Source of the DNA: Escherichia coli
GTDB taxonomy: Bacteria; Pseudomonadota; Gammaproteobacteria; Enterobacterales; Enterobacteriaceae
Assembly (NCBI RefSeq): GCF_013315695.1
Contig: NZ_CP054356.1
Strand: one strand, 5' to 3'
DNA length: 64,000 nt
Shown: positions 1-26,584 of the stretch, piece by piece
How the letters are laid out: the number at the start of each line of letters is the position of its first letter
How positions within the stretch are numbered: position 1 is the stretch's first letter
The notes under the pieces: model-generated
Told to the model about the DNA's origin: nothing
Databases searched by the model: none
The model's input: the letters and a program-made list of their open reading frames with translations, nothing else
Translations under genes and position numbers: made by a program

Positions 1-2
1 AT

Positions 3-422: not shown

Positions 423-956
423 GTTTTCATTCTAATGGTGTAGTAGTTTCACGTCACGCGCACGTGCATATTCTTCGAAAGCTTCGGCGTTAGCCGGTCA
501 ACCAGGGGTTTGAGGCCCAACCGTACGAGATCGTACGCTAAGTTCATTTTTTGAGCAGAAGAGGTGAGTAAAGAAAACGAGGGTTTTATTTACTCTTCCC
601 GTCAATGCCAGTAGCCATGCGGTTTCAGGGACTTTCAGTGTTAATAAACTCGGTAATCAAATCAACGTAAACCTGCCTAACAACGCCACGACTTTATTGA
701 CTTAAAATCATATAGTTAGCTTCTTAGCGTACGTTTCCGCTCCATTGGGCTTCAAACCCCACACCCAATGACATGAGAAAAGCTGGATCTGATTCTCAAA
801 ATGCTGGGATACCCATCGAGATGGAGAACTCAGTCAATGTTCCATTCTTTCTGAAATATGTGTGGGGACACTGATCTGTCGGGAGCCGGATGCGGTAGTT
901 CCGCAGGTCCGGTTCTGAGGAGGGGCCCGTCCGGGCAACCGGCGGGTCTACTCACC

Positions 957-1520
957 TCATCCCCCTACAACCACTCCCATTCGTTTAAGTATTTTTAAAC
1001 CTGCTTCCTGTGGTATCTTTATAGATAAGATCCTGTTTATCTCAGGATTTATATCGAGACCTTCTGTCATTGAAAAATCACAGTGAGACAAATCAGAATG
1101 TCTGAACTCTGTATTATTAAACTCCGAACCAGTAAAATCAGATTTACGAAGGTCTGTTTCCTCAAATAAACAATCACGGAAGCGACAGGATAAAAAAATA
1201 GATTTCTGTAACCGTAAACTAATAAAATCAACAAATCTCAAATCACAATTTACAAGAGAAAAAGTACAGGGAAACATAATGTCTGCTGCATTTACTCCTT
1301 GTAATAAACAATCTTTGAATTCACAGTCAATAAGTTTAAAAAAATTAAGTTTTAAATTCTTTATTGAGCAGTTTACGAAGCGACATTTTTCGAACTCACA
1401 ATCGCGAAAGTTAAAGTTGTCAAGCTGTATTCGTTCAAATATACAATTGTAATAATTTACACCTGATAATTCACTTTCACTGAGGTGTCGTTTTGTGATT
1501 CTTTTTTCTATTATATCCAT
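957..1520 (-). CDS. mcbG: Microcin B17 immunity protein McbG (pentapeptide-repeat protein)
   Basis: 187 aa, runs of pentapeptide repeats (..CEFEKCRFVNCSIKNLKLNFFKLIDCEFKDC..); last gene of mcbABCDEFG order. Confidence 0.9.
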   Translation of the reverse strand: MDIIEKRITKRHLSESELSGVNYYNCIFERIQLDNFNFRDCEFEKCRFVNCSIKNLKLNFFKLIDCEFKDCLLQGVNAADIMFPCTFSLVNCDLRFVDFISLRLQKSIFLSCRFRDCLFEETDLRKSDFTGSEFNNTEFRHSDLSHCDFSMTEGLDINPEINRILSIKIPQEAGLKILKRMGVVVGG

Positions 1521-1523
1521 GTG

Positions 1524-2255
1524 TCAGTCTCCTGTTCCCATAACTTCTTTAATAAATGCCTTTTCTGGAGTTGTTTCATTATTGGATTGAATAAAATCAC
1601 TCATATCAGAATAACGATTTATACTATTTTTTGAAAGCATATAGAAGGGGATTTTATCTCTTGTTAATTCATCAAAAATATGAGTTGAGAAAAATACCGT
1701 TTTCCCGTCAGCGGTGATCTTATTTATCAGTTCCCATAACATCATTCTGTACTGAATATCAATGCCTACAGTTGGTTCATCCAGTAAAAATAAACGGGCA
1801 TTTTTGCAAAGCGTTAGCATCAAAGATATGATAAGCCAACGCTTCTCTCCATAACTTACCGTGTAAGTCCTTTTACGTCTTATTTTATCATAGCGAATGA
1901 AAAAATTATCATTCCATTTATGATTAAGCTCTGTCCATGCCTGTTTTTTAGTTAACTTATTGAAGCAGCAAATCAAATCAAGAACCTCCTCATTCCTTAG
2001 TGTACCTGAAAGATTTATGACTTGAGGTAGACTTACTAATTCTCCACCAGAGAAATTTCGCTTGAGGGTCCCTTCATAATTACTGACTCCGCCCCTGATA
2101 AGGTTAAAAAGAGTGGTCTTCCCGGCTCCATTTTCTCCAAGCAGACCTATCAACTCTCCCTGCTCAATCTTAAGCGACAGATTATTGAAAACAGGGGGTA
2201 AATTTACTTTATATGAAAAGCTCAGAGAGTTGATTTCTAAAAGAGGTATGGTCAT
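1524..2255 (-). CDS. mcbF: Microcin B17 export/immunity ABC transporter ATP-binding protein McbF
   Basis: Walker A GENGAGKTT, ABC signature-like SGGE, Walker B LFLLDEP; position in operon. Confidence 0.9.
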   Translation of the reverse strand: MTIPLLEINSLSFSYKVNLPPVFNNLSLKIEQGELIGLLGENGAGKTTLFNLIRGGVSNYEGTLKRNFSGGELVSLPQVINLSGTLRNEEVLDLICCFNKLTKKQAWTELNHKWNDNFFIRYDKIRRKRTYTVSYGEKRWLIISLMLTLCKNARLFLLDEPTVGIDIQYRMMLWELINKITADGKTVFFSTHIFDELTRDKIPFYMLSKNSINRYSDMSDFIQSNNETTPEKAFIKEVMGTGD

Positions 2256-2977
2256 TGAGAACTCCAGACTGGCTCAGTTTTGAAGGTTAGTGCTGAAATA
2301 ATACTTATGATTAACATTATACTATAGAAAAATATCGTCATCAGAGACAACTCCTGGTCTGACTGGAGTATTGTAGAATAGATGGCGATAGGATTAACCT
2401 GATTTATCCAGTAAACGATCCCCTCATTATATTTTAATGATACAATTCCTGATACCATACAGACAGTTATTAATACAGAATAGATAGTGCTGGCTGTTTG
2501 GAATGTGACTCTGAACGATGCCATGAAAGTGAGTGAAACCATCATAAATGCATTTATGTATATCGATTTTAAAATAATCATTACTATTTGATAATCTGGA
2601 CTTGCCTGGAATCCTGTTAGTACGACTAAAATGAAAAAAAACACATACAAAATAGACATGATAAGTGAGGCTATTAATTGAGAACGAATAAATAATAGTC
2701 GACCATCCATATTATGCACGAAGGTAGCAATAAAACCACTTTCTCTTCTTCCGACCAGATACAGACAGTAATTAAACAGAACAACAGAAAAAGAAATGTA
2801 GCCTACAAACCATGATATTTGTTTTCCGAGCCATGCTGTATCACCATAATGAAGTTCAATTTCATTGAAATGAAGGAAAAAGAACAACACTGTAGGTGAC
2901 ATAATTGTCCATATTAAGCTGAAAGGGGTTCTGATTTGTTCCATCAGAAAAATTATCGCCATTTTTAATGTAACCAT
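2252..2977 (-). CDS. mcbE: Microcin B17 export/immunity ABC transporter permease McbE
   Basis: 241 aa highly hydrophobic multi-TM protein, translationally coupled to mcbF. Confidence 0.85.
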   Translation of the reverse strand: MVTLKMAIIFLMEQIRTPFSLIWTIMSPTVLFFFLHFNEIELHYGDTAWLGKQISWFVGYISFSVVLFNYCLYLVGRRESGFIATFVHNMDGRLLFIRSQLIASLIMSILYVFFFILVVLTGFQASPDYQIVMIILKSIYINAFMMVSLTFMASFRVTFQTASTIYSVLITVCMVSGIVSLKYNEGIVYWINQVNPIAIYSTILQSDQELSLMTIFFYSIMLIISIISALTFKTEPVWSSQ

Positions 2978-2986
2978 TTGTTATCC

Positions 2987-4177
2987 TTATGGGAATGGTA
3001 CCATCTTTGATTCTCTGACTTTAATACCGTCCCCGGTATGGTAAATTTTATTATTAATGTTTATTGCACCTGAGTTATTCATATGAAGGAAAAAATCAGG
3101 GCTTACTATTTTTGTGTACCAGACAAGGCTGTTACTTACTCTTTCCCTGGCATAGTAAACAAAAATATTATCAGAAATTTGTTGAAGATAGTTTAATAAA
3201 TTTGTGTCTGACGTAATATTTTCCTCAAGCGTTAACTTGACATCATCAGACAGTAGTACCGTATTTTCACACAAATCCGTAAACGACTCGTACTTGTTGC
3301 ATGACATAAAGTGACGCTGGTAACTATCAATAATGTCATCATCAGTATAACCGCCAATAAGAAAGTTGTGCAGGCATATATACGATTGCCACAATTCCAC
3401 TACGGATTTACAAAGTGCTTTTTTCAGACTATTAGCATAGGATAATCCGGTACTGTATTTTATTCGACTGATTTTGTTTTTTGTGCCATACAGGGTTAGT
3501 ACTGCGTGTCCAGGAGCTCCGGGCAGGGTGATATCGAAAATCCTGATATCTCCTTCTGACCTGAGAGCCAGTAAAATCTCATCTATATGATTTATGCCTG
3601 TTACTATTTCACTGGATATTTCAGTATTGGCTTTTCCCTGTAACCAGTAAAGAAGGAGGGACTGTCTCTCCATAAATTCACACAAGGAACCTTCTATGGC
3701 ATCGTTCAAACTACCATGAAAGCTACATCCGCATGTATCTCTGTCAGGATAAAATTTCAGATCATCTGCAGCGGTTATATTGTCGAGTGCAATTATGACT
3801 GCAGGTATTTCTTGTTGTTCAAGGCTAAACAGATTAAAGGCTCTGACCGTTTTAAATTTATGGGTTATGATTTCATCGCGGGTCAGTGATGAGATCTGAA
3901 AAAATGCTTCGGTAAAAGCCTTTGCAGCAGATGGAGGCATCATCTCATATAATGTTTTCTGACCACCGGTGACTATCTCATTAAAAAAATGACGGCGTTC
4001 AAAATATTCACCTATTGCCCCCTGAATTGACTTCAGAGTTTCACCGGCCGCGCTGGCTGGTGTAATACGCTCATAGTCCCATATCTGAGAAAACGTTGGC
4101 ATATTTCTGTTCAGTTTTGGACTCATGGCCATTGTGGCCGGCCATGCGGACATAAGGTTACTGTAGACATTTATCAT
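2987..4177 (-). CDS. mcbD: Microcin B17 synthetase subunit McbD (YcaO-type cyclodehydratase)
   Basis: 396 aa, operon position between mcbC and mcbE; size matches McbD. Confidence 0.85.
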   Translation of the reverse strand: MINVYSNLMSAWPATMAMSPKLNRNMPTFSQIWDYERITPASAAGETLKSIQGAIGEYFERRHFFNEIVTGGQKTLYEMMPPSAAKAFTEAFFQISSLTRDEIITHKFKTVRAFNLFSLEQQEIPAVIIALDNITAADDLKFYPDRDTCGCSFHGSLNDAIEGSLCEFMERQSLLLYWLQGKANTEISSEIVTGINHIDEILLALRSEGDIRIFDITLPGAPGHAVLTLYGTKNKISRIKYSTGLSYANSLKKALCKSVVELWQSYICLHNFLIGGYTDDDIIDSYQRHFMSCNKYESFTDLCENTVLLSDDVKLTLEENITSDTNLLNYLQQISDNIFVYYARERVSNSLVWYTKIVSPDFFLHMNNSGAININNKIYHTGDGIKVRESKMVPFP

Positions 4178-4976
4178 CGTTTACATCTCCAAAAAACTGA
4201 ACGATCAGTGGCGCTACAGTCCTCTGATCCAGATTCATTGTTTTTGCTACGTATGAATCGGTATATCCCGCCCATACCCGGTTTTTCAGTCCTATTTGAT
4301 CTGCAACCAATACTGCGTTCTGATACATCGAACCTGTTTCCATTAAGGCCATCCGGTATCCTCTGTAGCGATATTTGAACAAAGCTTTTTCAAAAATAAT
4401 GCAATAGACGAGAGCAAAATGGGGTTTACCAAGACGTTCCGAATCCCCACCGGACAGGCTTCGGTAGAGTGACTGAGTATTACATGTAGCAACAGGTTCC
4501 AGTGCCTGACTTAGCGGCAGGTAGTGATAAACATTAGTTCCTGCCTGCCAGTTTTCTGTATTTTCAGATAATCTGCATAAAAAAACTTCAATCGGGTACA
4601 ATGCCCCCCCAGAAGGATAAGGTCTTCTTACAGAGCCAGGATCAGGTGAGCTGAATGCATTGACTAATAACTTTTCAATAGTACGAATGGAAAGTTTATT
4701 TTTGTCGCAAAAGTTTATTCCTGATGGGAGCCTTTCACGACTAAAATTATGTGATGAGGATATGTTTATTACGGAGCTGAAACCTGGCCTGAAGAGAACT
4801 TCTTTATTTTCAAATTTCTCCAGATGGGCAAGAGGTACCGCGGACACGAAAGTTCGTTCAGCAAATTCGGGGAGGGAAGCAAAGTTACCTCTGACATGAA
4901 AATCTTTAACAATGGCCAGAACTTCAGGATCTGTGTAATGCGTTACTTCCACTAAAGAGAGTTCGTGTTTTGACAT
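4158..4976 (-). CDS. mcbC: Microcin B17 synthetase subunit McbC (FMN-dependent dehydrogenase)
   Basis: 272 aa, operon position; size matches McbC. Confidence 0.85.
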   Translation of the reverse strand: MSKHELSLVEVTHYTDPEVLAIVKDFHVRGNFASLPEFAERTFVSAVPLAHLEKFENKEVLFRPGFSSVINISSSHNFSRERLPSGINFCDKNKLSIRTIEKLLVNAFSSPDPGSVRRPYPSGGALYPIEVFLCRLSENTENWQAGTNVYHYLPLSQALEPVATCNTQSLYRSLSGGDSERLGKPHFALVYCIIFEKALFKYRYRGYRMALMETGSMYQNAVLVADQIGLKNRVWAGYTDSYVAKTMNLDQRTVAPLIVQFFGDVNDDKCLQ

Positions 4977-4977
4977 G

Positions 4978-5865
4978 TTATCTCTCCAGACAGCTGCAAG
5001 CCTGCCAGTGAATTACCGGCTCTTTACATAAAATACAGGTGATTAAATCAGCGCTAACAGATGACATAAAGTTATCGACATGACTTTTAACCAGTGAAGT
5101 ACCTGTCAACTCCTGAAGTCGCCGTTTTATTAAATGATAGCTGAATCCTCTTTCTGATTCGCCTAAAGCCAATGCTGGTAGTGTCATTTGGTATTTTTTC
5201 AGTAACTGAAGTAAGTTTGCCCAGGACATTTCGTTACGTCTGAAGCTTTTTTCTTCCCTGCTCAGCCATCTCTCTATATGACAAAAATGGCAGGGAGTAC
5301 CAAGATCAGGTGAATATACTCCATCTATCCTGAATGACTCCTTTAGGTAGTAGCTTTGGATGAAGGCAACACCAGGGTTACTTTCAAATTTTGAATAGAT
5401 TCTTTTTACAATGTCTGAATGATAGTTTTCGAGATGTAACCAGATTAGTGTTGAATCGCTCACATTAATATTATTATCTTTTATATCAATGATATGAGAA
5501 ACAAAAACACCATCAGATTTCCATTGTTCCCGGGCATTACTGAAAAGATGTGGAACATCGCTTATTATGACTGAGTTTACCCAGAGAGGTGATGTTTTCG
5601 TTTTATTTATCACGCCTGTGGTAATAAGAAACTCTTTGCCCTTGTCTTTATCAATAAGCGATTCGTCCAGTAGTTTATCAAGGAGGTATTCAGAAATAAT
5701 ACCCTGTTTGGATCGTAGGCTTTCGAGTACTTTTTTCATTCCCTCATGTGTAATGTCTACTGAAGAAATGTAGGTAATAAGCAGGGTCTTTGTATTTCTG
5801 GAAATTATCTCAAACGGCAGAATATTGATCATATCTTTTCCTTTTTTAATATCAGGGAGCACCAT
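4978..5865 (-). CDS. mcbB: Microcin B17 synthetase subunit McbB (zinc-binding scaffold)
   Basis: 295 aa, Cys-rich C-terminus (CHFCH..CILC..C.C), directly downstream of mcbA. Confidence 0.85.
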   Translation of the reverse strand: MVLPDIKKGKDMINILPFEIISRNTKTLLITYISSVDITHEGMKKVLESLRSKQGIISEYLLDKLLDESLIDKDKGKEFLITTGVINKTKTSPLWVNSVIISDVPHLFSNAREQWKSDGVFVSHIIDIKDNNINVSDSTLIWLHLENYHSDIVKRIYSKFESNPGVAFIQSYYLKESFRIDGVYSPDLGTPCHFCHIERWLSREEKSFRRNEMSWANLLQLLKKYQMTLPALALGESERGFSYHLIKRRLQELTGTSLVKSHVDNFMSSVSADLITCILCKEPVIHWQACSCLER

Positions 5866-5891
5866 GCTCCCTGAACGGTTAATTCAACGTA

Positions 5892-6101
5892 TCAGATATG
5901 TGAACCACTTCCGCCGCTGCCACCGTTTCCACCACTACAACCGTTGCTGCAACCACCACAACCGCCACCTTGACCACCGCAGCTACCGCCGCCGCCGCCG
6001 CCGCCACCACCACCAATGCCAACACCTAATGGAGACTGGCGTGATAATTTAAGAGCATCAACGGACAAAACTACACCAAATTCACTCGCTTTTAATTCCA
6101 T
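5892..6101 (-). CDS. mcbA: Microcin B17 precursor peptide McbA
   Basis: 69 aa MELKASEFGVVLSVDALKLSRQSPLGVGIGGGGGGGGGGSCGGQGGGCGGCSNGCSGGNGGSGGSGSHI; matches recalled McbA with leader plus Gly/Ser/Cys core. Confidence 0.97.
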   Translation of the reverse strand: MELKASEFGVVLSVDALKLSRQSPLGVGIGGGGGGGGGGSCGGQGGGCGGCSNGCSGGNGGSGGSGSHI

Positions 6102-6320
6102 AAGGACTCCTTTTTTAAGGGAAATTAATGCTTATGACATCTGAATAGTATGTTGGCCAACACTAGTTACTTGCCGTCATTAACTATATTTTGCAATGAT
6201 AATTTGAACTAAATTTGTACGCCTGTTAAATATTTAATAATAATATCAGTTGGTTATGTTTATGCTGTTATTGTTTTTTTACAAAAATTAATATTGTGTT
6301 TACATTTTGCTTTCAGTTGC
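6102..6320 (-). promoter_or_regulatory. mcbA upstream promoter region (AT-rich; expected site of the OmpR-dependent stationary-phase Pmcb promoter)
   Basis: AT-rich 200 bp directly 5' of mcbA on the minus strand; exact -35/-10 not assigned. Confidence 0.4.
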
Positions 6321-6630
6321 TGTCAGGATGTCACACTACCCCTTTAAGCCCCCACTGGTCTGGCAGGGCCGGGGGTGGGTAAGGTGAAACCTGTCAATCA
6401 GTACCGGCTTACGCCGGTATCATATGCAACAACTGAGTGCCGCCTTCCATATCATATCATTTGCCCGTTTCCCGCCGTGCAGATCCGGTTTCCGGCTGAA
6501 GTGGATCCAGACCTGATTTGTTGCTGAGTATCGGTAAAAGAGCGGCTTATAATCTATTCTGAAACATGGCAAGTGAATCTGGGCTGTATAATTCCGGCAA
6601 GTGTCATCTGTATTTAAAGGTCGTGTGAGT

Positions 6631-7083
6631 ATGAAATTTATGGAATGTGCTGTCCGGGATGTGATTTATGGGACCAATGTCCGTATTGTCAAACCGGTCA
6701 ACATTTATGAATGTGAACTCAGGGACAATGTGTTTGTCGGCCCCTTCGTTGAGATACAGAAAGGCTGTGTCATTGGTAGTGGAAGCCGGATACAGTCGCA
6801 CACGTTTATTTGTGAGAACGTAACACTGGGGGAGAACTGCTTCATTGGTCATAACGTGACGTTCGCCAACGATCTGTTTCGTTCAGGAGCACCAGATCCG
6901 TCACCGGATAACTGGATCAGCATTACCCTGGGGGATTCGGTTACTGTTGGCAGTGGAGCCATTATTCTGTCTCCGTATATATGCAGCGGAGCTGTTATTG
7001 GTGCGGGGGCAGTTGTAGTAAAACCGATTGAGAACAAAGGCATTTATGCAGGAAACCCGGCAAGACTGATCAGAATATTATGA
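6631..7083 (+). CDS. Hexapeptide-repeat (left-handed beta-helix) acyl/acetyltransferase
   Basis: Repeated [LIV]-G-x-x-x-x hexapeptides (IGHNVTF, LGDSVTVGSGAIILS, IGAGAVVV); ORF track starts at alternative GTG 6601, ATG at 6631 more likely. Confidence 0.75.
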   Translation: MKFMECAVRDVIYGTNVRIVKPVNIYECELRDNVFVGPFVEIQKGCVIGSGSRIQSHTFICENVTLGENCFIGHNVTFANDLFRSGAPDPSPDNWISITLGDSVTVGSGAIILSPYICSGAVIGAGAVVVKPIENKGIYAGNPARLIRIL

Positions 7084-7091
7084 AAAAGAAA

Positions 7092-7116
7092 AGGGCCGTT
7101 ACTGGCCCTTTTTATC
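7092..7116 (+). terminator. Rho-independent terminator after acyltransferase gene
   Basis: GGGCCGTTACTGGCCC hairpin followed by T-run just after stop codon. Confidence 0.55.
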
Positions 7117-7485
7117 AGAGGTAGGTCTGTGAATACGGCAGGTGTACAGAAATCGACTGCCGGGGATCGATTTCCAGGGCCGCCCGGTATTCTGCGTCAG
7201 TGATATCACCTTTTTTCAGTAAATAACCGAGAGCATCGTTTCCCAGCCCTGACAGTATGCGTATTCTGGCGATCCGGACTGGCAAATAACCCATCAAAAA
7301 CGTTATTGCCAGACATTGCGAACTCACCAATTTTGATTATTGGAGCCACTTTTTCATAAGTTCCGTGAAATTATTTCATAATAACGACCCTGTTTATTTT
7401 ATGTAATGACTGGCAATAAAATAACTTGATTAAGTTCCCTTTATCCAGCCTGATAGTGGATAAAGGAAACTCAATCATAATTTAA

Positions 7486-7839
7486 TTAGTTTATTAACTT
7501 CATCGCATTCTTTTTTGTCTCCTCATCACTTTTTTGCTCCGATTGTGAAGAGGACTGAATGATTGTTGAAGAATTTAAATCGGCCATCTCTTTTGGAAAT
7601 AGCGATCTCAATATATTCACGATATCTGAAAATGTGGTTTCTTTCGTCAGCAGTTCACATAAAAGGAAAGGGGCCCTGGGATCTTGTCTGTATAAGGCCA
7701 GACCTGCCGTCAGTGCAGCCCGGTTAAGGCGGCTGCGTTCCCCTTGCGGGATACTGTCCAGTGTATCACAAACAATTTTATCTGTTTGATTTACATCTGG
7801 ATTTAGCTTAAAGGCAATGGTTCTGCGCTTGTCCATCAT
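7486..7839 (-). CDS. parR: Plasmid partition adaptor ParR (StbB)
   Basis: 117 aa [47 protein letters not shown].. matches recalled R1/R100 ParR. Confidence 0.92.
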   Translation of the reverse strand: MMDKRRTIAFKLNPDVNQTDKIVCDTLDSIPQGERSRLNRAALTAGLALYRQDPRAPFLLCELLTKETTFSDIVNILRSLFPKEMADLNSSTIIQSSSQSEQKSDEETKKNAMKLIN

Positions 7840-8801
7840 TAATTACCTATGAGATACATACCGTTAACTAAATCATATTGAGAGTTATTGGTTTTAAAAA
7901 AACGTTCATCACGAATCTGTGTGTGTTTTTTTACTGCATCGCATATTAATTCTGCGCCACCACCTATAACCATAACATGAGTATAACCAGAAAATTCATT
8001 GAGTGTATTTAATACACGTTGCTCAAGTTTACGAAGTGCTTCATTCATTGCTTCGGTGACTATTGATATTTTATTCTCATCATTAATTCGTTGCTTCAGA
8101 TAGTTATTATCTTTTCTGTGAATAATTATATCGTCAGCAAGATAGCTACTTCCTTTTGTTCTCGCAAGAGAAAGGGCATCTTTTACTGCAGATGTGACCA
8201 GAGATACACCAAGAGATGAGTCTCCGTATATTTTACTGATTCCCGATAATTTCCCCATTACCTGAGAAATATCTAATGTGGTGCCCCCGAGATCTATAAT
8301 TAATAAAGAATCTAACTCATCCAGTTCTTGTAGAACTTCATAACCTGCCGGTATAGATTCAGGCATGACTTTTACATCTTTTATTGTGAATGTATCCCCA
8401 CCATTTAATGTAATTTTTTTCCGGAAGTTTGCTTTCTTACGCTCAATATTTTCCGTATTGGGTTGGTTATTCCTGTCGTAATACTCTGTCAGAGGAAGTG
8501 TGCAAACAATATCCACTTCGCTTACCGGCAGACCACTGGTCAGTAAGGCGTGGTGCACCGCAACGACATTAACGTCGCTGTATTGCCATGCGATATTGGT
8601 TGTGACTACAGCATCCGGGCTGATTGGATCAAATGAATACTGTTCGCCGTTCAGTGTGTAGTTAAAGACCTTTTTATCACCAAAAGAAACTGCCCACTCG
8701 CGTTTGAAGCTGTTCGGGCTAATGTGCTGTTTAATTGTTCCGTCGCTTTCCTGCCACTGTAGTTTGATGTTTGTTGAACCGTCATCAATGAATACCAACA
8801 T
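7839..8801 (-). CDS. parM: Plasmid partition actin-like ATPase ParM (StbA)
   Basis: 320 aa [25 protein letters not shown].. matches recalled R1 ParM. Confidence 0.95.
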
Positions 8802-8980: not shown

Positions 8981-9290
8981 AGATGTCGCCGGGCTCCTCT
9001 TTTTACTGCGCCGGCTGACGCGGCGCGGCAGGAACGCTGCCTGTGGTCAGTGTCCCGCGTCCGGCCGGGCACGGGACGGGCGCTTTTACCGCTCCCGGCT
9101 GGCGTCGGTGACAGTGTACGCCAGCCCGTCGCCCTTTTCTGATGAGCGCCCTTCAAGCCGCTTTCGCGGCATAGCCTTGCCGTCAAAAAGACGACGGCTG
9201 CGGTATTCCACGGTCGGCCTGACCCGTTACCGGGCGCGGTGAACAGCCCACAGGCAGCGGGGAACGGGCGCCACAGGGGCGCCCTCCCGA
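8981..9290 (+). repeat. Leading-region structured repeat, family A copy 1 (Frpo/ssi-like candidate ssDNA promoter)
   Basis: About 310 bp nearly identical to 10288-10598; GC-rich with nested inverted repeats; sits directly upstream of an operon start. Confidence 0.6.
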
Positions 9291-9312
9291 TGCTCCTGTG
9301 AGGATAATTCCC

Positions 9313-10239
9313 ATGCCAAACTGGTGCTCGAATCGTATGTATTTTTCTGGTGAACCGGCACAGATCGCTGAGATTAAACGACTGGCCAGCGGTGCAGTCA
9401 CACCGTTTTATCGCCGCGCCACAAATGAAGGTATTCAGCTGTTTCTGGCCGGAAGTGCCGGACTTCTGCAGACCACTGAAGATGTGCGGTTTGAACCATG
9501 CCCCGGACTGACGGCTGCCGGACGTGGTGTTTTATCGCCGGAGAATATCACGTTCACCCGCTGGCTGAAGCACCTGCAGGACGGTGTACTGCTGGATGAG
9601 CAAAACTGCCTGATGCTGCATGAACTCTGGCTGCAGAGCGGTACTGGACAGCGTCGCTGGGAAGGGTTACCGGATGATGTCAGGGAAACTATCACTGTGC
9701 ATTTCACCGCAAAAAGAGGTGACTGGTGTGACATCTGGGGTAACGAGGATGTATCGGTGTGGTGGAACCGTCTGTGTGACAACGTACTGCCGGAAAAAAC
9801 CATGCCGTTTGACCTGCTGACGGTTTTGCCGACCCGCCTGGATATTGAAGTGAATGGCTTTAACGGCGGTGTTCTGAACGGTGTTCCTTCTGCATATCAC
9901 TGGTATACAGAACGGTATGGCGTGAAGTGGCCTTGTGGGTATGACCTGAATATCAGCAGTCAGGGGGAAAACTTCATTCAGGTAGATTTCGACACGCCGT
10001 GGTGTCAGCCGGAAAGCGACGTTGTTGCAGAATTAAGCCGCCGTTTCGGCTGCACGCTGGAGCACTGGTACGCCGAACAGGGCTGCAATTTCTGTGGCTG
10101 GCAGTTGTATGAGCGCGGAGAGCTTGTTGATGTGCTGTGGGGGGAACTGGAATGGTCTTCCCCGACAGATGACGATGAGCTGCCGGAAGTCACCGGACCT
10201 GCGTGGATAGTCGACAATGTGGCGCATTATGGCGGATGA
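9313..10239 (+). CDS. Hypothetical Trp/Cys-rich leading-region protein (about 308 aa)
   Basis: ORF with SD AGGA upstream of ATG 9313 (track gives alternative GTG 9298); motifs PNWCSNRMYF, WCDIWGNEDVSVWWNRLCDN, GCNFCGWQL; no family recognised with confidence. Confidence 0.6.
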   Translation: MPNWCSNRMYFSGEPAQIAEIKRLASGAVTPFYRRATNEGIQLFLAGSAGLLQTTEDVRFEPCPGLTAAGRGVLSPENITFTRWLKHLQDGVLLDEQNCLMLHELWLQSGTGQRRWEGLPDDVRETITVHFTAKRGDWCDIWGNEDVSVWWNRLCDNVLPEKTMPFDLLTVLPTRLDIEVNGFNGGVLNGVPSAYHWYTERYGVKWPCGYDLNISSQGENFIQVDFDTPWCQPESDVVAELSRRFGCTLEHWYAEQGCNFCGWQLYERGELVDVLWGELEWSSPTDDDELPEVTGPAWIVDNVAHYGG

Positions 10240-10287
10240 AGTATGACGGAGACGGGCGGGCAACCGCCCGTTTCTTTTCCGGTAAAG

Positions 10288-10598
10288 GATGTCGCCGTGC
10301 TCCTCTTTTTACTGCGCCGGCTGACGCGGCGCGGCATAAACGCTGCCTGTGGTCAGTGTCCCGCGTCCGGTGGGCACGGGACGGGCGCTTTTACCGCTCC
10401 CGGCTGGCGTCGGTGACAGTGTACGCCAGCCTGTCGCCCTTTTCTGATGAACGCCCTTCAAGCCGCTTTCGCGGCATAGCCTTGCCGTCAGAAAGACGAC
10501 GGCTGCGGTATTCCACGGTCGGCCTGACCCGTTACCGGACGCGGTGAACAGCCCACAGGCAGCGGGGAACGGGCACCACAGGGGTGCCCTCCCGGTGC
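10288..10598 (+). repeat. Leading-region structured repeat, family A copy 2 (Frpo/ssi-like)
   Basis: Near-identical to 8981-9290; ends just before RBS of methyltransferase gene. Confidence 0.6.
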
Positions 10599-10622
10599 CC
10601 TCTGTAAGAGAAGGAGTTTTGT

Positions 10623-11306
10623 ATGTCCCGTTTTGTCCTCGGTAACTGCATCGATGTTATGGCCCGTATTCCTGATAACGCCATTGATTTCATACTGACT
10701 GACCCGCCGTACCTCGTCGGTTTCCGTGACCGTTCCGGGCGCACCATTGCCGGTGATGTTAATGATGACTGGCTGCAACCTGCCAGCAATGAGATGTACC
10801 GCGTACTCAAAAAAGACGCGCTGATGGTCAGCTTCTACGGCTGGAACCGTGTCGATCGCTTTATGGCCGCCTGGAAACGCGCCGGATTCAGCGTGGCAGG
10901 GCACCTCGTGTTCACCAAAAACTACACATCCAAATCTGCGTATGTCGCGTACCGTCACGAATGCGCTTACATCCTGGCAAAGGGCAGTCCGGCCCGGCCC
11001 CGTAACCCTCTGCCGGATGTGCTGGGCTGGAAATATTCAGGCAATCGTCATCACCCGACGGAAAAGCCCGTTACCAGCCTGCAACCACTGATTGAGAGCT
11101 TCACACATCCGAACGCGATTGTGCTGGACCCGTTTGCAGGCAGCGGCTCAACCTGCGTCGCTGCCCTCCAGTCCGGACGCCGGTATATCGGTATCGAGCT
11201 GCTTGAACAGTATCACCGTGCCGGACAGCAACGACTGGCCGCCGTGCAACGGGCCATGCAGCAGGGGGCCGCGAATGATAACTGGTTTGAACCGGAGGCT
11301 GCGTAA
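10623..11306 (+). CDS. Orphan DNA methyltransferase (N6-adenine/N4-cytosine type, beta-class)
   Basis: Motif IV TDPPY precedes motif I DPFAGSGST; 227 aa; typical leading-region orphan MTase. Confidence 0.85.
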   Translation: MSRFVLGNCIDVMARIPDNAIDFILTDPPYLVGFRDRSGRTIAGDVNDDWLQPASNEMYRVLKKDALMVSFYGWNRVDRFMAAWKRAGFSVAGHLVFTKNYTSKSAYVAYRHECAYILAKGSPARPRNPLPDVLGWKYSGNRHHPTEKPVTSLQPLIESFTHPNAIVLDPFAGSGSTCVAALQSGRRYIGIELLEQYHRAGQQRLAAVQRAMQQGAANDNWFEPEAA

Positions 11307-14289: not shown

Positions 14290-14490
14290 TACAGGGCAGG
14301 CGGTGGAGGCCGCCTGTCAGCCCGCGCGAAAACCCCTGGCAGGCTGGCGCCTGCCGGAAGGGAAGCGGGCCACGCTGGCGCGTCGCCCGTTACCCTTCCC
14401 GTTTGTGATGTGTCCGGAATGTTTTTTCCTGATGTTATGTTTCTGTGGTTACTGTTCTTCTTCTTCCTCTTCTTTCCGTTCCTCTCCTGT

Positions 14491-15025
14491 TTATGCCTTT
14501 TCCGGGCGTCCCCCTGGCGGGGCGGGCTGTCGTGAACGGAGCCAGCGGAGCTGTCTCCGCCCTGGCGGGCTTCCATCCCTGACGCAAAACCCCGGGTTTG
14601 CAGCGACCGGAACGGTCGCGCCACCCCTGTCGCGCCGTGGCCTGCGCTCCCGGCATCCCGGCAAAAAGACGCCGGGATGTAAGGAGCAACGCCGTTTCGC
14701 AAACCGCGCTTCACGTCGTTGCAGCGGGTCCCTGCTCATTGCCTGCCGGGTGCCACACACCCGTATGAGTCCCTGTCGCCGGGGGCATAGACAGCCACAA
14801 CCTGCCGCACTGACTGTCCAGGGTAAATGAACAGCCCACAAAATTTTTTACCTAAAACCCGGTAAAAAATTTTGCGTTCTGCCCAGGACAGGTGCGTCAG
14901 GCCGTGGCAGTGATGCCCCTTGCGGCGAAGGTTCTCAAACGGGTGAAGTTCATACCACAGGGAATACAGCAGCAGGTTCCCGCGAAACGTCAAAACCGCG
15001 GCTCCCGAAACTCAACGGGTGATGT
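14491..15025 (+). repeat. Leading-region structured repeat, family B copy 1 (Frpo/ssi-like candidate ssDNA promoter)
   Basis: About 530 bp repeated at 17774-18300 and 23191-23740; contains perfect 14-bp inverted repeat CAAAATTTTTTACC/GGTAAAAAATTTTG (about 14839-14874). Confidence 0.6.
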
Positions 15026-15256
15026 TCTTTAAAAATCAGGATTTATTTCAGGCTCCGGCAATACGCATTTATGTGTTCTGTCAGTCATCCGGCTGGCAGG
15101 TAATGAAAACGCAGGAACAGAAGGAGGAAAACACCGGAAAGCGTCAGATGCAGATATGAAAAAAAGCAGGTCAGGGACCTGCTTAATCCACGCCGTAAGA
15201 ATTGTGCGACCAATTTTGACGGCATTGTTAACCAATTTGTCATAAGGAATCCATTT

Positions 15257-15487
15257 ATGACTGTAAGCATTGTTTCACCTTCCGCAGCGGCTGTAAAGCC
15301 CCGCCGTCATCCCCGTTTCAGACGCGAAGACATCCCCGCGCCGGAACTTGACCCCGTGCTGAAAGCCTTCGGGCGACACATTGCCCGGAGTTTTCGCCGG
15401 GGGCGTGGTGTACACATCCCCGCCATGAAAAACACGGCCTTCGGGCAGGTGCTCCGCACACTCGAACTGAAACGCGCTTTTAACTGA
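15257..15487 (+). CDS. Hypothetical small basic protein (76 aa, Arg-rich)
   Basis: RBS AAGGAA; first gene after family B copy 1; RRHPRFRRED..RSFRRGRG. Confidence 0.5.
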   Translation: MTVSIVSPSAAAVKPRRHPRFRREDIPAPELDPVLKAFGRHIARSFRRGRGVHIPAMKNTAFGQVLRTLELKRAFN

Positions 15488-15538
15488 TGAGGTGAGCCGC
15501 CCCGCGAGGGGCGGCAACAGACGGAAGGAGAACATTTT

Positions 15539-16900
15539 ATGACATTAGCAGCAATCACCATGACCGCCCCGGAAGCCGCCAGCCCTGTGCAGATGTACCG
15601 CGCGACCTACTCACCGGATGACAACAAACTGCGCCTGTATGCCGTGTCACGTCTTGACCCGGAGACGTATAAAAAAGTGCATGATGCCGGTTTTCGCTGG
15701 GCACCAGAACAGGCGCTGTTTGTGGCTCCAGCCTGGACACCGGGCCGGGAAGACGTGCTCCTCTCACTTGCCGGAGAGATTGAGGATGAAGACAGCACGC
15801 TCGCTGAACGTCAGGAAGCACGGGCGGAGCGGTTTACCGGATACAGCGGAAAGCGGGCCAGTGAATCCGCACAGGCACTTGATGAAGTGGAAAGACTGGC
15901 CGCGATGATCCCGCCCGGTCAGCCCATTCTTGTGGGGCATCACAGCGAACGCCGCGCCCGTCGTGATGCGCAGCGTATTGAAAACGGCATGAAACGTGCC
16001 GTGATGCTCTTTGAACGTGCGGAATACTGGGAAGAACGTGCGCGGTCGGCACTGCTTCACGCGAAGTATAAAGAACGTCCGGACGTTCGCTGGCGTCGTA
16101 TCAAAAAAATCGAAGCTGATTTGCGCAAGGCTGAAAAGACCATCGCACAGTCGCAGAAATATCTGACGATGTGGCGGGCTGAATCGCTGGATCTGAATAT
16201 GGCAAAACTCATCAGCAGTCATGACCATATCAGCGCCTGTTTCCCGCTGGATACGTATCCGCGCCCGGCAGAAAAAAGCCAGTATGAAGGAAGTCGATCG
16301 TTATGGTCGGCCCTGGATGATGACATCATCACCACGGAGCAGGCCCGCGAAATTGCGATCCGCTGTCATGAACGGCAGATTCAGCATCAGCAACGCTGGG
16401 TTAACCACTATCAGAACCGCCTGATCTATGAGCGTGCCATGCTGGACGAAAGCGGCGGCGTGGTTACCCGGACACAGGATTTTGAGCCGGGCGGACAGGT
16501 TTTCAGCCGGGGCGAGTGGCTGACCATCATCCGCGTGAACAAAAGCAACGGGGCGGTGAGTTCAGTCACAACGCCGAATTACAGTTTTCTCGGGTACAGC
16601 GGCACGATGAAAGTGACGCCCGATCGCATCACGGACTACAAAGCACCATCGGCAGAAGAGGCTGCCGTCGCCAGCCAGGCCGCGAAGCGTCCGCCGGTAG
16701 TCAACTATCCGGGGGAAGGTTTCCGGGAAATGACAAAGGCGCAGTGGGCCGCCCTGCCCCGGGACTGTAAGGCCGTGCGCAGTGTGGCAGAGACAGAAGA
16801 CCACGGGGCATACCGCTACCGCCGCACAATGGACAATAATTTCCGCCTGGTGAATGTGTATATCACCGACATGAAAATCACGGAAATCCCGCAGAAATAA
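15539..16900 (+). CDS. Hypothetical leading-region protein (453 aa)
   Basis: Strong RBS GAAGGAGA; long ORF with Arg/Glu-rich helical central region; no family assigned with confidence. Confidence 0.65.
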   Translation: MTLAAITMTAPEAASPVQMYRATYSPDDNKLRLYAVSRLDPETYKKVHDAGFRWAPEQALFVAPAWTPGREDVLLSLAGEIEDEDSTLAERQEARAERFTGYSGKRASESAQALDEVERLAAMIPPGQPILVGHHSERRARRDAQRIENGMKRAVMLFERAEYWEERARSALLHAKYKERPDVRWRRIKKIEADLRKAEKTIAQSQKYLTMWRAESLDLNMAKLISSHDHISACFPLDTYPRPAEKSQYEGSRSLWSALDDDIITTEQAREIAIRCHERQIQHQQRWVNHYQNRLIYERAMLDESGGVVTRTQDFEPGGQVFSRGEWLTIIRVNKSNGAVSSVTTPNYSFLGYSGTMKVTPDRITDYKAPSAEEAAVASQAAKRPPVVNYPGEGFREMTKAQWAALPRDCKAVRSVAETEDHGAYRYRRTMDNNFRLVNVYITDMKITEIPQK

Positions 16901-16946
16901 GGTATATCCCCCCGGGAAATCCCCGGGGGATGACGGAGATAATGAT

Positions 16947-17510
16947 ATGCACAGTCAGTTAAAAGAACGTATCCGGCTGATGCGCGCAAGGCTGGATAAC
17001 GCCGCGCCGGTTGCTGAAATCCGGGCTGAATCTCAGCTTTTTGTGACTCCTGCCCCGGTCTGTGATCGCCTGGTGACGCTGGCGGAGATCAGCAACCGTG
17101 ATCACATTCTGGAACCCTCTGCCGGCACCGGGGCCATACTGCGGGCGATTCGTCATGTCGCGCCGGGGGCCATGTGTGATGCGGTGGAGATTAACAGCGG
17201 GCTGGTCCGGTATCTGCGGGATAATTTTAACGGTGTCAGGGTTCAGTGTGGCGACTTCATGGAATGGCAGCCGGTGCAGTATTACAGCCGGATTATCATG
17301 AATCCGCCGTTCAGTCACGGGCAGGATATCCGGCATATCCTGCGGGCTTTTTCCCTGTTGCGTCCGGGTGGTGTGCTGGTTGCCGTCTGTCTGAACGGGC
17401 CGCGCCAGCAGGAGAAGCTGTTACCGTTTTCTGATGTCCGCGAGGTGCTGCCGTGCGGCACATTTGCTTATACCCGTGTTCCGACGATGATTATTCGTCT
17501 GCGTGCCTGA
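16947..17510 (+). CDS. Small orphan SAM-dependent DNA methyltransferase (N6-adenine type)
   Basis: Motif I EPSAGTGA and motif IV NPPF; 187 aa; RBS GGAG. Confidence 0.7.
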   Translation: MHSQLKERIRLMRARLDNAAPVAEIRAESQLFVTPAPVCDRLVTLAEISNRDHILEPSAGTGAILRAIRHVAPGAMCDAVEINSGLVRYLRDNFNGVRVQCGDFMEWQPVQYYSRIIMNPPFSHGQDIRHILRAFSLLRPGGVLVAVCLNGPRQQEKLLPFSDVREVLPCGTFAYTRVPTMIIRLRA

Positions 17511-17687
17511 TGACTCCGGGCAGGCGGGAGGATAAATGCCCGTCTGCCCGCGCCGGGAAAAGACCGCGCGCCGGTGGCGCTGAAAGGGGCCGCGCTTACG
17601 CGCCGCCCCTTTCATTACGCGGACGTTCTGCTGTGGGCTTCTGTCTTTTCAGACCTGTCATTTGCCTGTTACTGATGATGTTGTTGT

Positions 17688-17722
17688 TCCTGCTACTGCT
17701 ACTGCTACTGCTACTGCTACTG
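17688..17722. repeat. Tandem hexanucleotide repeat (TGCTAC)n, about 5 units
   Basis: CTGCTACTGCTACTGCTACTGCTACTGCTACTG in pyrimidine-rich tract preceding family B copy 2. Confidence 0.8.
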
Positions 17723-17773
17723 TTCTTCTTTTTTCTGCTGCTCTGATTACTGTCTGTTTTGTTGTTCTCCTGC

Positions 17774-18300
17774 TTATGCCTTTTCCGGGCGTCCCCCTGG
17801 CGGGGCGGGCTGTCGTGAACGGAGCCAGCGGAGCTGTCTCCGCCCTGGCGGGCTTCCATCCCTGACGCAAAAACCCGGGTTTGCAGCGACCGGAACGGTC
17901 GCGCCACCCTTGTCGCGCCGTGGCCTGCGCTCCCGGCATCCCGGCAAAAGACGCCGGGATGTAAGGAGCAACGCTGTTTCGCAAACCGCGCTTCACGTCG
18001 TTGCGGCGGGTCCCTGCCCGTTGTTCTGTCCGGTGCCATTCACCTGTTTAAGCCCCTGTCGCCGGGGGCTGATACAGCCACAACCTGCCGCACTGACTGT
18101 CCAGGGTAAATGAACAGCCCACAAAATTTTTTACCCAAAACCCGGTAAAAAATTTTGCGTTCTGCCCAGGACAGGTGCGTCAGGCCGTGGCAGTGATGCC
18201 CCATGCGGCGAAGGTTCTCAAACAGGTGATGGTGAATACCGGAGGGAACAAAAGGCAGGTCCCCGCAAAACGTCAAAACCGCGGCTCCCGAAACTCAACA
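17774..18300 (+). repeat. Leading-region structured repeat, family B copy 2 (Frpo/ssi-like), upstream of ssb
   Basis: Near-identical to 14491-15025 and 23191-23740. Confidence 0.6.
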
Positions 18301-18340
18301 GATGATGGGGGCTGAAAACATCAACAGAAGGAGACACATC

Positions 18341-22872: not shown

Positions 22873-23190
22873 CAGGGCTGATGCTGGTCTGACTGCACTG
22901 AAGCGCCTTTATAAAGGGGCTGCTGGTTCGCCGGTGGCCCCTTTCTCCTTGCTGGCATTGTACGGGCATGAACAACCAGACTGCCAGGAAGGCCGTTTCC
23001 CTCCGGGAACGGGGATGAACGTGCGCCTGCGGCGCCCGTTCTTTTCCCCCGCCTTCTCTGTTTATGACTTACCAGAAATCACATCACCTTCCCTTTGATT
23101 ATTCTCTTTTTCCTCCTGCTCTGACTCTGATTACTGCTCTGACTCTGATTACTGCTGCCCTGATTATTGTCTGTTTTGTTGTTCTCCTGC

Positions 23191-23740
23191 TTATGCCTTT
23201 TCCGGGCGTCCCCCTGGCGGGGCGGGCTGTCGTGAACGGAGCCAGCGAAGCTGTCTCCGCCCTGGCGGGCTTCCATCCCTGACGCAAAACCCCCGGCTTG
23301 CAGCGACTGTTCCGGTCGCGCCGCCTCTGTCGCGCCGTGGCCTGCGCTCCTGGCATCCCGGCAAAAGGCCGCCGGGATGTAAGGCGCAACGCCGTTTCGC
23401 AAACCGCGCTTCACGTCGTTGCGGCGGGTCCCTGCCCGTTGTTGTGTCCGGTGCCATTCACCTGTTTAAGCCCTGTCGCCGGGGCTGATAGTTGATACAA
23501 CCTGCCGCACTGACTGTCCGGTAAAATGAACAGCCCACAAAATTTTTTACCCAAAACCCGGTAAAAATTTTGCGTTCTGCTCCAGACAGGTGCGTCAGGC
23601 CGTGGCAGGTGATGCCCCTGCGGCGAAGGTTCTCAAACAGGTGATGGTGAATACCGGAGGAACAAAAGGCAGGTCCCCGCAAAACGTCAAAACCGCGGCT
23701 CCCGAAACTCAACAGATGATGGGGGCTGAAAACATCAGAT
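23191..23740 (+). repeat. Leading-region structured repeat, family B copy 3 (Frpo/ssi-like)
   Basis: Near-identical to copies 1 and 2; 3' end shares the ssb leader sequence up to about 10 nt before the RBS. Confidence 0.6.
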
Positions 23741-23752
23741 ACAGGAGGAATT

Positions 23753-24049
23753 ATGAGCGCATTTTCTTTTAACACCACTTATCAGCCAACAGGCGATCAG
23801 CAGAAAGACGCAATCGCACAAATCGGGATCATGCAGAATCGTGCTGTTCAGGCAAATCTTGCATATCAGAGCTGCCGGGATTCTGGTGCACTCTTTAAGG
23901 TGCTCCACCAGGTCAATAATGAGCTGCATGACTTACTGGATAGCCTGGAGAATCATACTCCTCTTGTCAGAAAAAACGCTGATGAGTTGATCGCGCTGTT
24001 ACTGCTTTTCACTCGGCAGGTTGGTCAGTCCCGAACTGACCTGATTTGA
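23753..24049 (+). CDS. Hypothetical protein (98 aa)
   Basis: RBS AGGAGG; first gene after family B copy 3. Confidence 0.5.
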   Translation: MSAFSFNTTYQPTGDQQKDAIAQIGIMQNRAVQANLAYQSCRDSGALFKVLHQVNNELHDLLDSLENHTPLVRKNADELIALLLLFTRQVGQSRTDLI

Positions 24050-25277: not shown

Positions 25278-25787
25278 TTAATTTTTCTGCACACTGTTAA
25301 TTTGGGAAAGTGATTTCTTCGTGGTCGGAACCCGGATGCCTTTACTGCTCTTTATCCAGGTATAAATCCGGTAAACCTCTGATGCGTAGGCAAGACGTCT
25401 CTGGTTCTGGCGTTCGGTCTTCCTGAATCCGGCATTGTATGCACCAACGGCCTCCCAGGAGACGCCCCATTTTTTAAAGGCTATTGCCAGATAATAAGCA
25501 CCGGTATAAATGTTCATGCAGGGATCTGTTGTCAGATGTTCCGGCTTAATTCCATAGCGGGCCAGTTCGTTAAAATGCTGGGAATCTACCTGCATCAGTC
25601 CGCTGCCATATCCCGTTACCGGATTAATACCGATGGCATTAACCCGGTAACGGGATTCTTTCCATGATATCGCTCTCAGTAAATCCGGGTCTATTTTGTA
25701 ATCCCGACCTGCAAGATCAAAGCAATCGGCGGCTTCGCAGATCCCATTTATAAACATCAGGCAGATTGCTAACATCCATTTTTTCAT
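25278..25787 (-). CDS. Lytic transglycosylase (F orf169/gene X-like)
   Basis: 169 aa with signal peptide and transglycosylase motifs (..ISWKESRY.. GLMQV.. AYNAG..); transcribed away from oriT. Confidence 0.85.
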
Positions 25788-26200: not shown

Positions 26201-26584
26201 ATGGCTAAGGTGAACCTGTATATCAGCAATGATGCCTATGAAAAAATAAATTCGATTATTGAGAAGCGTCGACAGGAAGGGGCAAGGGAAAAAGATGTCA
26301 GTTTTTCAGCAACAGCTTCAATGCTTCTTGAACTGGGGCTTCGTGTATATGAGGCTCAGATGGAGCGTAAAGAGTCTGCATTTAATCAGACTGAGTTTAA
26401 TAAATTGCTTCTTGAATGCGTTGTAAAAACACAATCATCAGTAGCGAAAATTTTGGGTATTGAGTCTCTCAGTCCTCATGTCTCCGGAAATCCAAAGTTT
26501 GAATATGCCAATATGGTTGAAGATATCAGGGAGAAGGTATCATCTGAGATGGAACGATTTTTTCCAAAAAATGATGATGAATAA
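26201..26584 (+). CDS. traM: Relaxosome protein TraM
   Basis: 127 aa MAKVNLYISNDAYEKINSIIEKRRQEGAREKDVSFSATASMLLELGL.. matches TraM. Confidence 0.95.
   Translation: MAKVNLYISNDAYEKINSIIEKRRQEGAREKDVSFSATASMLLELGLRVYEAQMERKESAFNQTEFNKLLLECVVKTQSSVAKILGIESLSPHVSGNPKFEYANMVEDIREKVSSEMERFFPKNDDE

Follow-up and report, generated by a model that had tools for sequence, protein, structure and literature searches.

A DUF3560 protein and an adenine methyltransferase core as a candidate entry-phase modification system in the leading region of IncF plasmids

M.EcoGIX is a leading-region methyltransferase with a single-strand promoter; SAY sites of the entering single strand are its targets, and it confers protection from restriction (Fomenkov 2020, PMC7736820). 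Adenine methylases of the EcoKI/TaqI-like clade, which carry an N-terminal TP helix, occur in proteins that enter the cell together with invading DNA (Iyer 2017, PMC5512222). Frpo elements are single-strand promoters that in vivo drive the early, transient expression of the genes downstream of them (PMC9849209; also PMC12672017); initiation of transcription on single-stranded DNA (ssDNA) has been shown for Frpo1 and Frpo2 of the F plasmid (PMC9849209) and for ssi1-3 of pESBL (PMC12672017), and the role of Frpo2 in F was established experimentally (PMC9849209). Here we analyze a three-gene cassette, ydaB-ydbA-ydcA, located in a 64,000-nt stretch of Escherichia coli DNA (contig NZ_CP054356.1), the whole of which is referred to as the window. 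According to a reading that we hold with about even confidence as a complete chain, the cassette would encode a transient two-subunit N6-adenine DNA methyltransferase that modifies the incoming plasmid before it can be restricted.

The genes are annotated in thousands of records and their families have been catalogued as uncharacterised. DUF3560 is an abundant leading-region family of this kind (family 28, rank 28, 1913 members; Samuel 2024, Supplementary Table 1), and some structural matches of family 28 were called 'methyltransferase domain' in the same study. The label 'uncharacterised', which an earlier reading of the bare sequence (hereafter the original prediction) had also given to the operon, still stands for the family, which had already been listed in that table. 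Our literature search found no experiments on ydbA or ydcA and no functional study of any kind; Klebsiella pneumoniae CRISPR spacers targeting both genes have been reported.

The ydbA-ydcA pair and its fused relatives

The cassette comprises three co-oriented open reading frames (ORFs):

15257-15487, plus strand: ydaB, ORF of 76 aa, small basic protein
15539-16900, plus strand: ydbA, ORF of 453 aa, DUF3560 protein
16947-17510, plus strand: ydcA, ORF of 187 aa, predicted gamma-class N6-adenine methyltransferase catalytic core

Coordinates, strand and lengths were exactly those of the original prediction, and the good ribosome-binding sites that it had described were present too: Shine-Dalgarno-like sequences (AAGGA for ydaB, GGAAGGAG for ydbA and ACGGAG for ydcA) lie 7-10 nt 5′ of each ATG. 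The genes are separated by spacers of 51 nt (ydaB-ydbA) and 46 nt (ydbA-ydcA). Comparison with the homologues carried by an IncF plasmid of Klebsiella grimontii (L011) gave amino-acid identities of 86% for ydaB, 78% for ydbA and 64% for ydcA, with dN/dS ratios (omega) of 0.09, 0.12 and 0.28, respectively, at a dS of ~1. This purifying selection indicates that all three ORFs, including the one of 76 aa, are real coding genes.

In the Pfam scan YdcA matched only generic class I methyltransferases (MTS best, 5e-6; Methyltransf_25, RrnaAD and N6_Mtase), and no match was found to PF01555, the 'DNA methylase' type of M.EcoGIX. By sequence, its best solved relative was the catalytic domain of M.TaqI (E 2e-6), aligned from the TP motif through EPSAGTG to NPPF. 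Motif X of YdcA (QLFVTP, aa 30-35) aligned with ETP of M.TaqI and YYTP of DarB, motif I (EPSAGTG, aa 56-62) with EPACAHG of M.TaqI and LEPSAGTG of DarB, and motif IV (NPPF, aa 119-122) with NPPY of M.TaqI, the family consensus being MNPPF. The motif order (FxTP, EPSAGTG, NPPF) is that of the gamma class, and YdcA has matches to M.TaqI, HsdM, mad2 and DarB. PADLOC returned mad2 (3.5e-20) together with many type II methyltransferase models, and P1 DarB aligned with YdcA over DarB residues 91-267 (23% identity, E 6e-6), the alignment extending from YYTP over LEPSAGTG as far as the C-terminal LPxGTF. The strongest matches overall were PHROG families (1e-30 to 1e-32) whose profiles are 1259-3925 positions long; the phage homologues of the domain lie inside very long ORFs, as in Shewanella phage X14, where the coding sequence spans 1-8223 beside a tailspike gene. 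The adenine-methyltransferase-like character and both motifs claimed for this protein (I and IV) in the original prediction were borne out, since the Pfam, PADLOC, M.TaqI and DarB alignments agree on the core. No target-recognition domain was found in the 187 aa of YdcA, which stops after the Rossmann core, compared with 421 aa in M.TaqI. These alignments point to YdcA as the complete Rossmann core of a DarB/TaqI-like N6-adenine methyltransferase, devoid of a recognition domain.

The same searches bear on the substrate. An enzyme that methylates host RNA (rRNA or tRNA adenine) or a host protein would reprogram the new host rather than shield the plasmid, and this we consider unlikely. Another leading-region protein, YfjB, has been reported to reprogram the host (PMC13370423). 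The best NCBIfam matches of YdcA were the Erm and KsgA rRNA adenine methyltransferases and PrmC, its profile matched Dim1/KsgA slightly better than TaqI (Dim1 6e-8, TaqI 1e-6), its top Pfam family, MTS, is of the RsmC/RsmD/HemK type, and a KOW-like barrel, such as the one modelled in YdbA, is common in RNA- and ribosome-binding proteins. However, the NCBIfam scores for rRNA methyltransferases are far below the family cut-offs (34 vs 212 bits), the strongest profile matches of YdcA are DNA methyltransferase domains of phage and defence systems, and the homology to DarB covers the whole core. In addition, an N-terminal QLFxTP helix is typical of DNA enzymes of the HsdM, TaqI and Eco57I types, not of KsgA or Erm. 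A DNA substrate is the reading that we follow below.

A full scan of 1.84 billion cluster representatives (50% identity) recovered 3879 relatives of YdbA, with 684 clusters at E <= 1e-30. Most of the best relatives were proteins of 630-730 aa, 43-57% identical, in which YdbA aligned over the first ~450 residues; their C-terminal 160-190 residues were YdcA-like (QLFPTP ... LEPSAGTG ... MNPPF ... LVAICANGPRQ). In phmmer comparisons, a YdcA-like domain was C-terminal in 100 of the 150 best representatives and in 83 of the 84 among them that are 600-800 aa long; the fused proteins end with the methyltransferase domain. The break point in IncF coincides with the Pro/Ala-rich linker of the fused proteins. 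The ydbA-ydcA spacer, 46 nt long and in the +1 frame here, is 48 nt long and in frame in the K. grimontii plasmid; because its length and frame differ between lineages, the spacer is non-coding and the two halves are translated separately. As judged from these alignments, the IncF ydbA and ydcA genes represent the fission, in the enterobacterial IncF lineage, of a DUF3560-methyltransferase of ~670 aa. YdcA had been described as an unusually short stand-alone methyltransferase; being one half of a fused enzyme, it is instead the catalytic part of a split protein, which explains its length.

Since YdbA and YdcA form one polypeptide in most relatives (a Rosetta-stone pattern), they are functionally linked, and it is highly probable that they work together as physical or functional partners. 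Two other accounts of the split were considered. A pseudogene or decayed fusion was ruled out: omega is far below 1 in both halves, a ribosome-binding site precedes ydcA, and the split is kept in nearly all among the 5000 PLSDB matches listed. Programmed readthrough or frameshifting that would rejoin the halves is unlikely, given the change between lineages from 46 nt, +1 to 48 nt, in frame.

Fused genes were located in MOBF/MPF_F conjugative plasmids of Acidovorax, Comamonas, Alicycliphilus, Cupriavidus, Burkholderia, Paraburkholderia and Pseudomonas. On Acidovorax pAOVO01 the fused gene is co-oriented with ssb, DUF932, C5-methylase, exonuclease and RadC genes and lies upstream of traD and trwC. 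The non-coding 590 nt 5′ of it (L012 8400-8990, within a 1.1-kb gap) contain a long imperfect hairpin and, on the template strand, fold far more stably than shuffled sequences (z-score, z, -6.5); they may act as a single-strand promoter, though one without sequence relationship to Frpo. A second split pair was detected in a metagenomic array (L016 3658-5621), where genes for 456 aa and 198 aa overlap by 4 nt beside a Lar-type restriction-alleviation gene.

The original prediction could place no motif in YdbA. The protein carries DUF3560 (PF12083) at aa 89-206 (E 1.1e-36, model positions 3-121 of 124), and the match was present in all 98 aligned relatives. No match to YdbA was obtained in NCBIfam, PADLOC or the PDB (sequence and profile), the PDB matching only the methyltransferase part, and PHROGs gave only families of unknown function for YdbA and YdaB. 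Comparison with solved recognition domains in the PDB revealed no similarity, YdbA being unrelated to HsdS or to the recognition domain of TaqI, and no helicase family was found in YdcA, YdbA or the 98 relatives scanned. An AlphaFold2 model built with these relatives had high scores (predicted local distance difference test, pLDDT, 93.9; predicted template modelling score, pTM, 0.82). In it, residues 20-85 form a small alpha/beta domain and residues 88-212 and 266-304 long helical hairpins; a barrel of five strands (320-360) and, at the C terminus, another alpha/beta domain (366-442) follow. Apart from the KOW/Tudor-like barrel, the model had no informative solved structural relative, and the predicted fold is confident but orphan. 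The profile searches and structure prediction that had been suggested as checks therefore yielded families for YdbA (DUF3560) and YdcA (methyltransferases) and a confident model of YdbA, whereas YdaB was left with a weak partial match.

The invariant or nearly invariant residues of YdbA are R91, R98, the loop GQPILVGHHS (127-136), W164, R187, R196, H290, R294 and E298. We propose that YdbA is the non-catalytic DNA-binding and targeting half of the split methyltransferase. Alternatively, the pair might protect without catalysis, by coating or capping the entering strand or by titrating a nuclease or defence sensor of the host; the methyltransferase core would then serve mainly as a base-flipping binder. 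For DarA/DarB and ArdC, binding to the transferred DNA and its protection from restriction-modification systems have been described (Iyer 2017, PMC5512222), four of the invariant arginines (R91, R98, R187 and R196) sit on DUF3560 helices in a segment with an isoelectric point (pI) of 10.2, and some DUF3560 genes have no intact methyltransferase gene nearby. In contrast, both the family consensus (LEPSAGTG, MNPPF) and every fused sequence read retain the S-adenosylmethionine (AdoMet) and catalytic motifs, and YdcA is under purifying selection; such motif conservation is the pattern expected of an active enzyme, and we regard protection without catalysis as fairly improbable.

YdaB has a pI of 12. 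Its homologues numbered 233; among those listed, identity was 75-100% and most had 76 aa, and those with a named source belonged to Enterobacterales. Apart from a weak partial Pfam match to HU-CCDC81_euk_1 (38 of 89 model positions, E 2.6e-4), YdaB had no match in the PDB, NCBIfam or PADLOC. It was absent next to the fused forms and was dissimilar to a small acidic ORF 5′ of one fused gene. On this distribution, YdaB is a lineage-specific addition of Enterobacterales. The functional link suggested in the original prediction is supported for YdbA and YdcA.

Leading-region setting, promoter repeats and antisense RNA

The 4.2 kb around the cassette were 99.9% identical to E. coli IncF plasmids, and at least 5000 PLSDB records, most of them conjugative, contained the cassette. 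The genes of the closest record are, in order, DNA methylase, DUF1380, antirestriction (KlcA-like), DUF1380, the cassette (annotated as hypothetical, DUF3560 and class I SAM methyltransferase), ssb, DUF905, ParB-like, psiB, hok, DUF932, SLT (opposite strand), traM and traJ. By this annotation, the order corresponds to a classical leading region, and the window is assigned to the leading region of an IncF plasmid. Two genes of the window indicate where transfer starts:

25278-25787, minus strand: SLT gene
26201-26584, plus strand: traM

From their positions, the origin of transfer (oriT) lies close to 26 kb, which puts the cassette ~9-11 kb into the leading region. Leading genes are templated by the transferred strand, with the opposite-strand SLT gene ygfA as the sole exception (PMC9849209). 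Together with the orientation of SLT and traM, this rule identifies the minus strand of the window as the transferred strand.

Frpo-type repeats flank the cassette and recur further downstream (direct-repeat families D1/D2/D4/D5):

14443-15040, minus strand: copy A, Frpo-type (class 1) single-strand promoter repeat, upstream of the cassette
17726-18323, minus strand: copy B, equivalent of F Frpo2, bordering the cassette on the right and serving as ssb operon promoter
23143-23737: copy C, third direct-repeat copy

The starts of copies A and B are exactly 3283 nt apart, and all three copies aligned over their whole length with Frpo1 and Frpo2 of F. The minus strand of 14700-15100, in copy A, folds into a hairpin of ~300 nt (-101 kcal/mol, z -8.4) centred near 14852-14861. 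The promoter scan found no duplex sigma-70 consensus 5′ of the operon on the plus strand. From its homology and from the hairpin on the transferred strand, copy A is predicted to be a class 1 single-strand promoter. Thus, the three genes were rightly treated as one unit in the original prediction, as they are co-oriented, 3′ of an Frpo-type promoter and within a conjugative leading region. Downstream of copy A come a leader of ~215 nt and an antisense RNA gene, whereas the next gene begins within ~40 nt of copies B and C. The repeats coincide with the borders of the module (B1) that had been said to contain these three genes only, but the module also holds the antisense RNA gene on the minus strand (15161-15262).

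Each Frpo copy starts with a variable CT-rich tract of CTT/CTG runs resembling trinucleotide repeats (14400-14500, 17683-17780 and 23100-23200); these tracts (alignment columns 1-100) differ among the copies and from F. The repeats also contain paralogous ORFs of 46-60 aa (14892-15032, 18175-18315 and possibly 23590-23772). The largest leading-region family of Samuel 2024 (family 1, 4739 members) is named YdaB/YdfB/YgdA and is uncharacterised. No paralogue of the 76-aa YdaB was found within the window, and family 1 is probably another small ORF; it might consist of the ORFs borne by the Frpo repeats.

The antisense RNA and the other RNA elements of the cassette are the following:

15161-15262, minus strand: AS-pc01 antisense RNA (Rfam RF02875, 'antisense to pHK01_035'), covariance model, 79.4 bits vs gathering score 79, E 2.7e-13
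15297->15269, minus strand: sigma-70-like promoter of AS-pc01, independent scan, the sole sigma-70-like site of the region, with its -10 box at 15269-15274
15184->15164, minus strand: terminator-like site of AS-pc01, independent scan
16909-16929, plus strand: GC-rich stem-loop in the ydbA-ydcA spacer, -23.5 kcal/mol, z -2.7, just 5′ of the ydcA Shine-Dalgarno sequence
17517-17550 and 17581-17614, plus strand: two strong hairpins after ydcA, z -3.5, the second terminator-like with a weak U tail

AS-pc01 covers the Shine-Dalgarno sequence and ATG of ydaB and ~95 nt of the leader, and it folds into three stem-loops (z -4.1). It was found at the same place in the K. grimontii plasmid (73.2 bits, 5597-5692). 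The template of AS-pc01 is the plus strand, which is not transferred and is absent from the recipient before complement synthesis; therefore, AS-pc01 can be transcribed only from the duplex plasmid. AS-pc01 would thus add to the loss of Frpo a second off-switch, effective once the duplex has formed. A stem-loop of different sequence was present at the equivalent position of the K. grimontii spacer (~7355-7385), and the spacer stem-loop may adjust how efficiently the second half is translated or how stable the mRNA is. Neither of the hairpins after ydcA was flagged in a consensus terminator scan.

The F plasmid lacks the cassette: its DUF1380 gene and small ORFs are followed directly by Frpo2-ssb. 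When F Frpo2 (L002, ~10000-10650) was scored at the sites where copies A and B differ, it proved to be chimeric: almost without exception, it agreed with copy A as far as alignment column 373 and, starting at column 390, with copy B. This chimera indicates that F lost ydaB-ydbA-ydcA by recombination between two Frpo copies. The repeats and the loss in F bear on a further possibility, in which methylation would mark or time the processing of plasmid DNA (strand discrimination, second-strand synthesis or early transcription) rather than block restriction. Frpo hairpins are also replication roadblocks and primers (bioRxiv 10.64898/2026.01.09.698686; PMC12672017), M.EcoGIX acts jointly with DNA polymerase I (PMC7736820), and regulatory roles of plasmid methylases have been noted (Dimitriu 2024). 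Nevertheless, no specific evidence favours a role of this kind here, F manages without the cassette, and the relatives sit among anti-defence genes (RadC, Lar, C5-methylase); we judge it very unlikely.

The 'DNA methylase' gene of the closest plasmid maps to ~10.6-11.3 kb of the window and, by this mapped annotation, is taken to be a homologue of M.EcoGIX. The two copies of a 290-nt direct repeat (9000-9293 and 10306-10598, 97% identical, 1305-1306 nt apart) mapped, by the same annotation, just 5′ of the DUF1281 and M.EcoGIX-type methylase genes. In the second copy, the minus strand folds at -96 kcal/mol (z -7.2). For M.EcoGIX a 'class 3' single-strand promoter has been reported, and the repeat may be that promoter, here in two copies. 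Upstream of the leading region, the closest plasmid (L001 1-3900) carries the microcin B17 (mcb) operon and a parM partition locus, which map to ~2200-6100 of the window and are the probable counterpart of its low-GC segment (1-9 kb, GC 0.32-0.43).

Proposed mechanism and points against it

In the mechanism that we propose, transcription of the operon would start at the Frpo hairpin promoter on the entering transferred strand, and the enzyme would therefore be present in the transconjugant within minutes. YdcA would provide the AdoMet-dependent N6-adenine catalytic core, with no DNA-recognition domain of its own, and YdbA would supply DNA binding and targeting through its Arg-rich helical-hairpin region, its KOW/Tudor-like barrel and its two small alpha/beta domains. 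Adenines of the incoming plasmid would be methylated on the single strand or on the nascent duplex, probably with loose specificity, ahead of host restriction. Expression would then be shut off twice, first by second-strand synthesis, which would destroy Frpo, and second by AS-pc01, which would pair with the ribosome-binding site of ydaB and whose template strand exists only in the duplex. YdaB would be a lineage-specific basic accessory protein. For this operon we infer complex formation, the DNA substrate, the timing and the anti-restriction role, the last of which the original prediction had also suggested and which is plausible.

Several points weigh against this mechanism. The literature search found no methylation, complex-formation or restriction assay on YdbA/YdcA. 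Transcripts of ydbA and ydcA were measurable by reverse transcription PCR (RT-PCR) in vegetatively growing cells bearing pS88, according to the literature, and expression may therefore not be strictly zygotic. F transfers at ~93% in the laboratory (PMC9849209) without the cassette, which is therefore dispensable there and accessory. An M.EcoGIX-type methylase is already present upstream on this plasmid type. On the YdcA core, rRNA adenine methyltransferases score about as well as DNA enzymes. Finally, among the DUF3560 genes that lack an intact methyltransferase gene nearby, two (L017/L018) had none in the flank and two others (L014/L015) had at most an inverted remnant, seen in L015 as an inverted YdcA-like fragment downstream of the DUF3560 gene (5047-5406, minus strand).

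A broader proposal is that the pair represents a new architectural class, in which a partner of hitherto unseen fold (DUF3560 hairpins with the invariant GHHS/Arg ladder and a KOW/Tudor-like barrel) loads an adenine methylase core lacking a recognition domain onto the incoming single strand, and in which expression is gated by strandedness, Frpo turning it on and Frpo loss together with AS-pc01 turning it off. This we put forward tentatively and with some doubt.

Comparison with known systems

New in this analysis are the fission of a fused DUF3560-methyltransferase, the placement of YdcA in the DarB/TaqI-like clade, the confident but orphan fold of YdbA, the recombinational loss of the cassette in F and the link between AS-pc01 and the operon. 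In E. coli and Klebsiella, resistance genes are carried mainly by IncF plasmids. If the pair is an entry-phase methylase, the anti-restriction repertoire of these plasmids would contain a second, mechanistically distinct modification system, and DUF3560 would gain a function. A need of YdcA for the upstream gene would explain its incomplete look, as well as why methylome surveys of established strains are unlikely to assign it a motif. The split of YdbA and YdcA also implies that both genes should be co-expressed in experiments.

By analogy, M.EcoGIX is the closest functional precedent for YdbA/YdcA. M.EcoGIX and M.BceJIII (PMC7736820), like YdcA, are encoded by orphan adenine methyltransferase genes of a leading region, with the transferred strand as template and a single-strand hairpin promoter on their 5′ side. 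Both are silent in established cells and single-strand-specific, and M.EcoGIX has been shown to protect against restriction on entry. YdcA differs from M.EcoGIX in its family (gamma-class, TaqI/HsdM/DarB-like), in its large DUF3560 partner and in its organization as two genes. The promoter compares with Frpo1 and Frpo2 of F and with ssi1-3 of ColIb-P9/pESBL, copy A being likewise a full-length homologue with a long hairpin on the transferred strand.

The catalytic core compares most directly with P1 DarB (PMC5512222): both cores fall in the EcoKI/TaqI-like clade with an N-terminal TP helix, and both would be deployed by invading DNA at entry. DarB-type proteins carry LPD36 at the N terminus and a superfamily 2 (SF2; SWI2/SNF2) helicase at the C terminus and are packaged in virions. 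In contrast, the partner of YdcA is DUF3560, the only domain detected N-terminal to the methyltransferase in the Pfam scan (the LPD36 model was not confirmed in that library), there is no helicase, and synthesis is predicted to occur in the recipient from a single-strand promoter. With M.TaqI and type I HsdM, YdcA shares the order of motifs X (FxTP), I (ExxxGxG) and IV (NPPF/Y) and the similarity of the Rossmann core. Whereas M.TaqI has a C-terminal recognition domain of its own and HsdM uses HsdS, YdcA has neither, and YdbA is the candidate partner.

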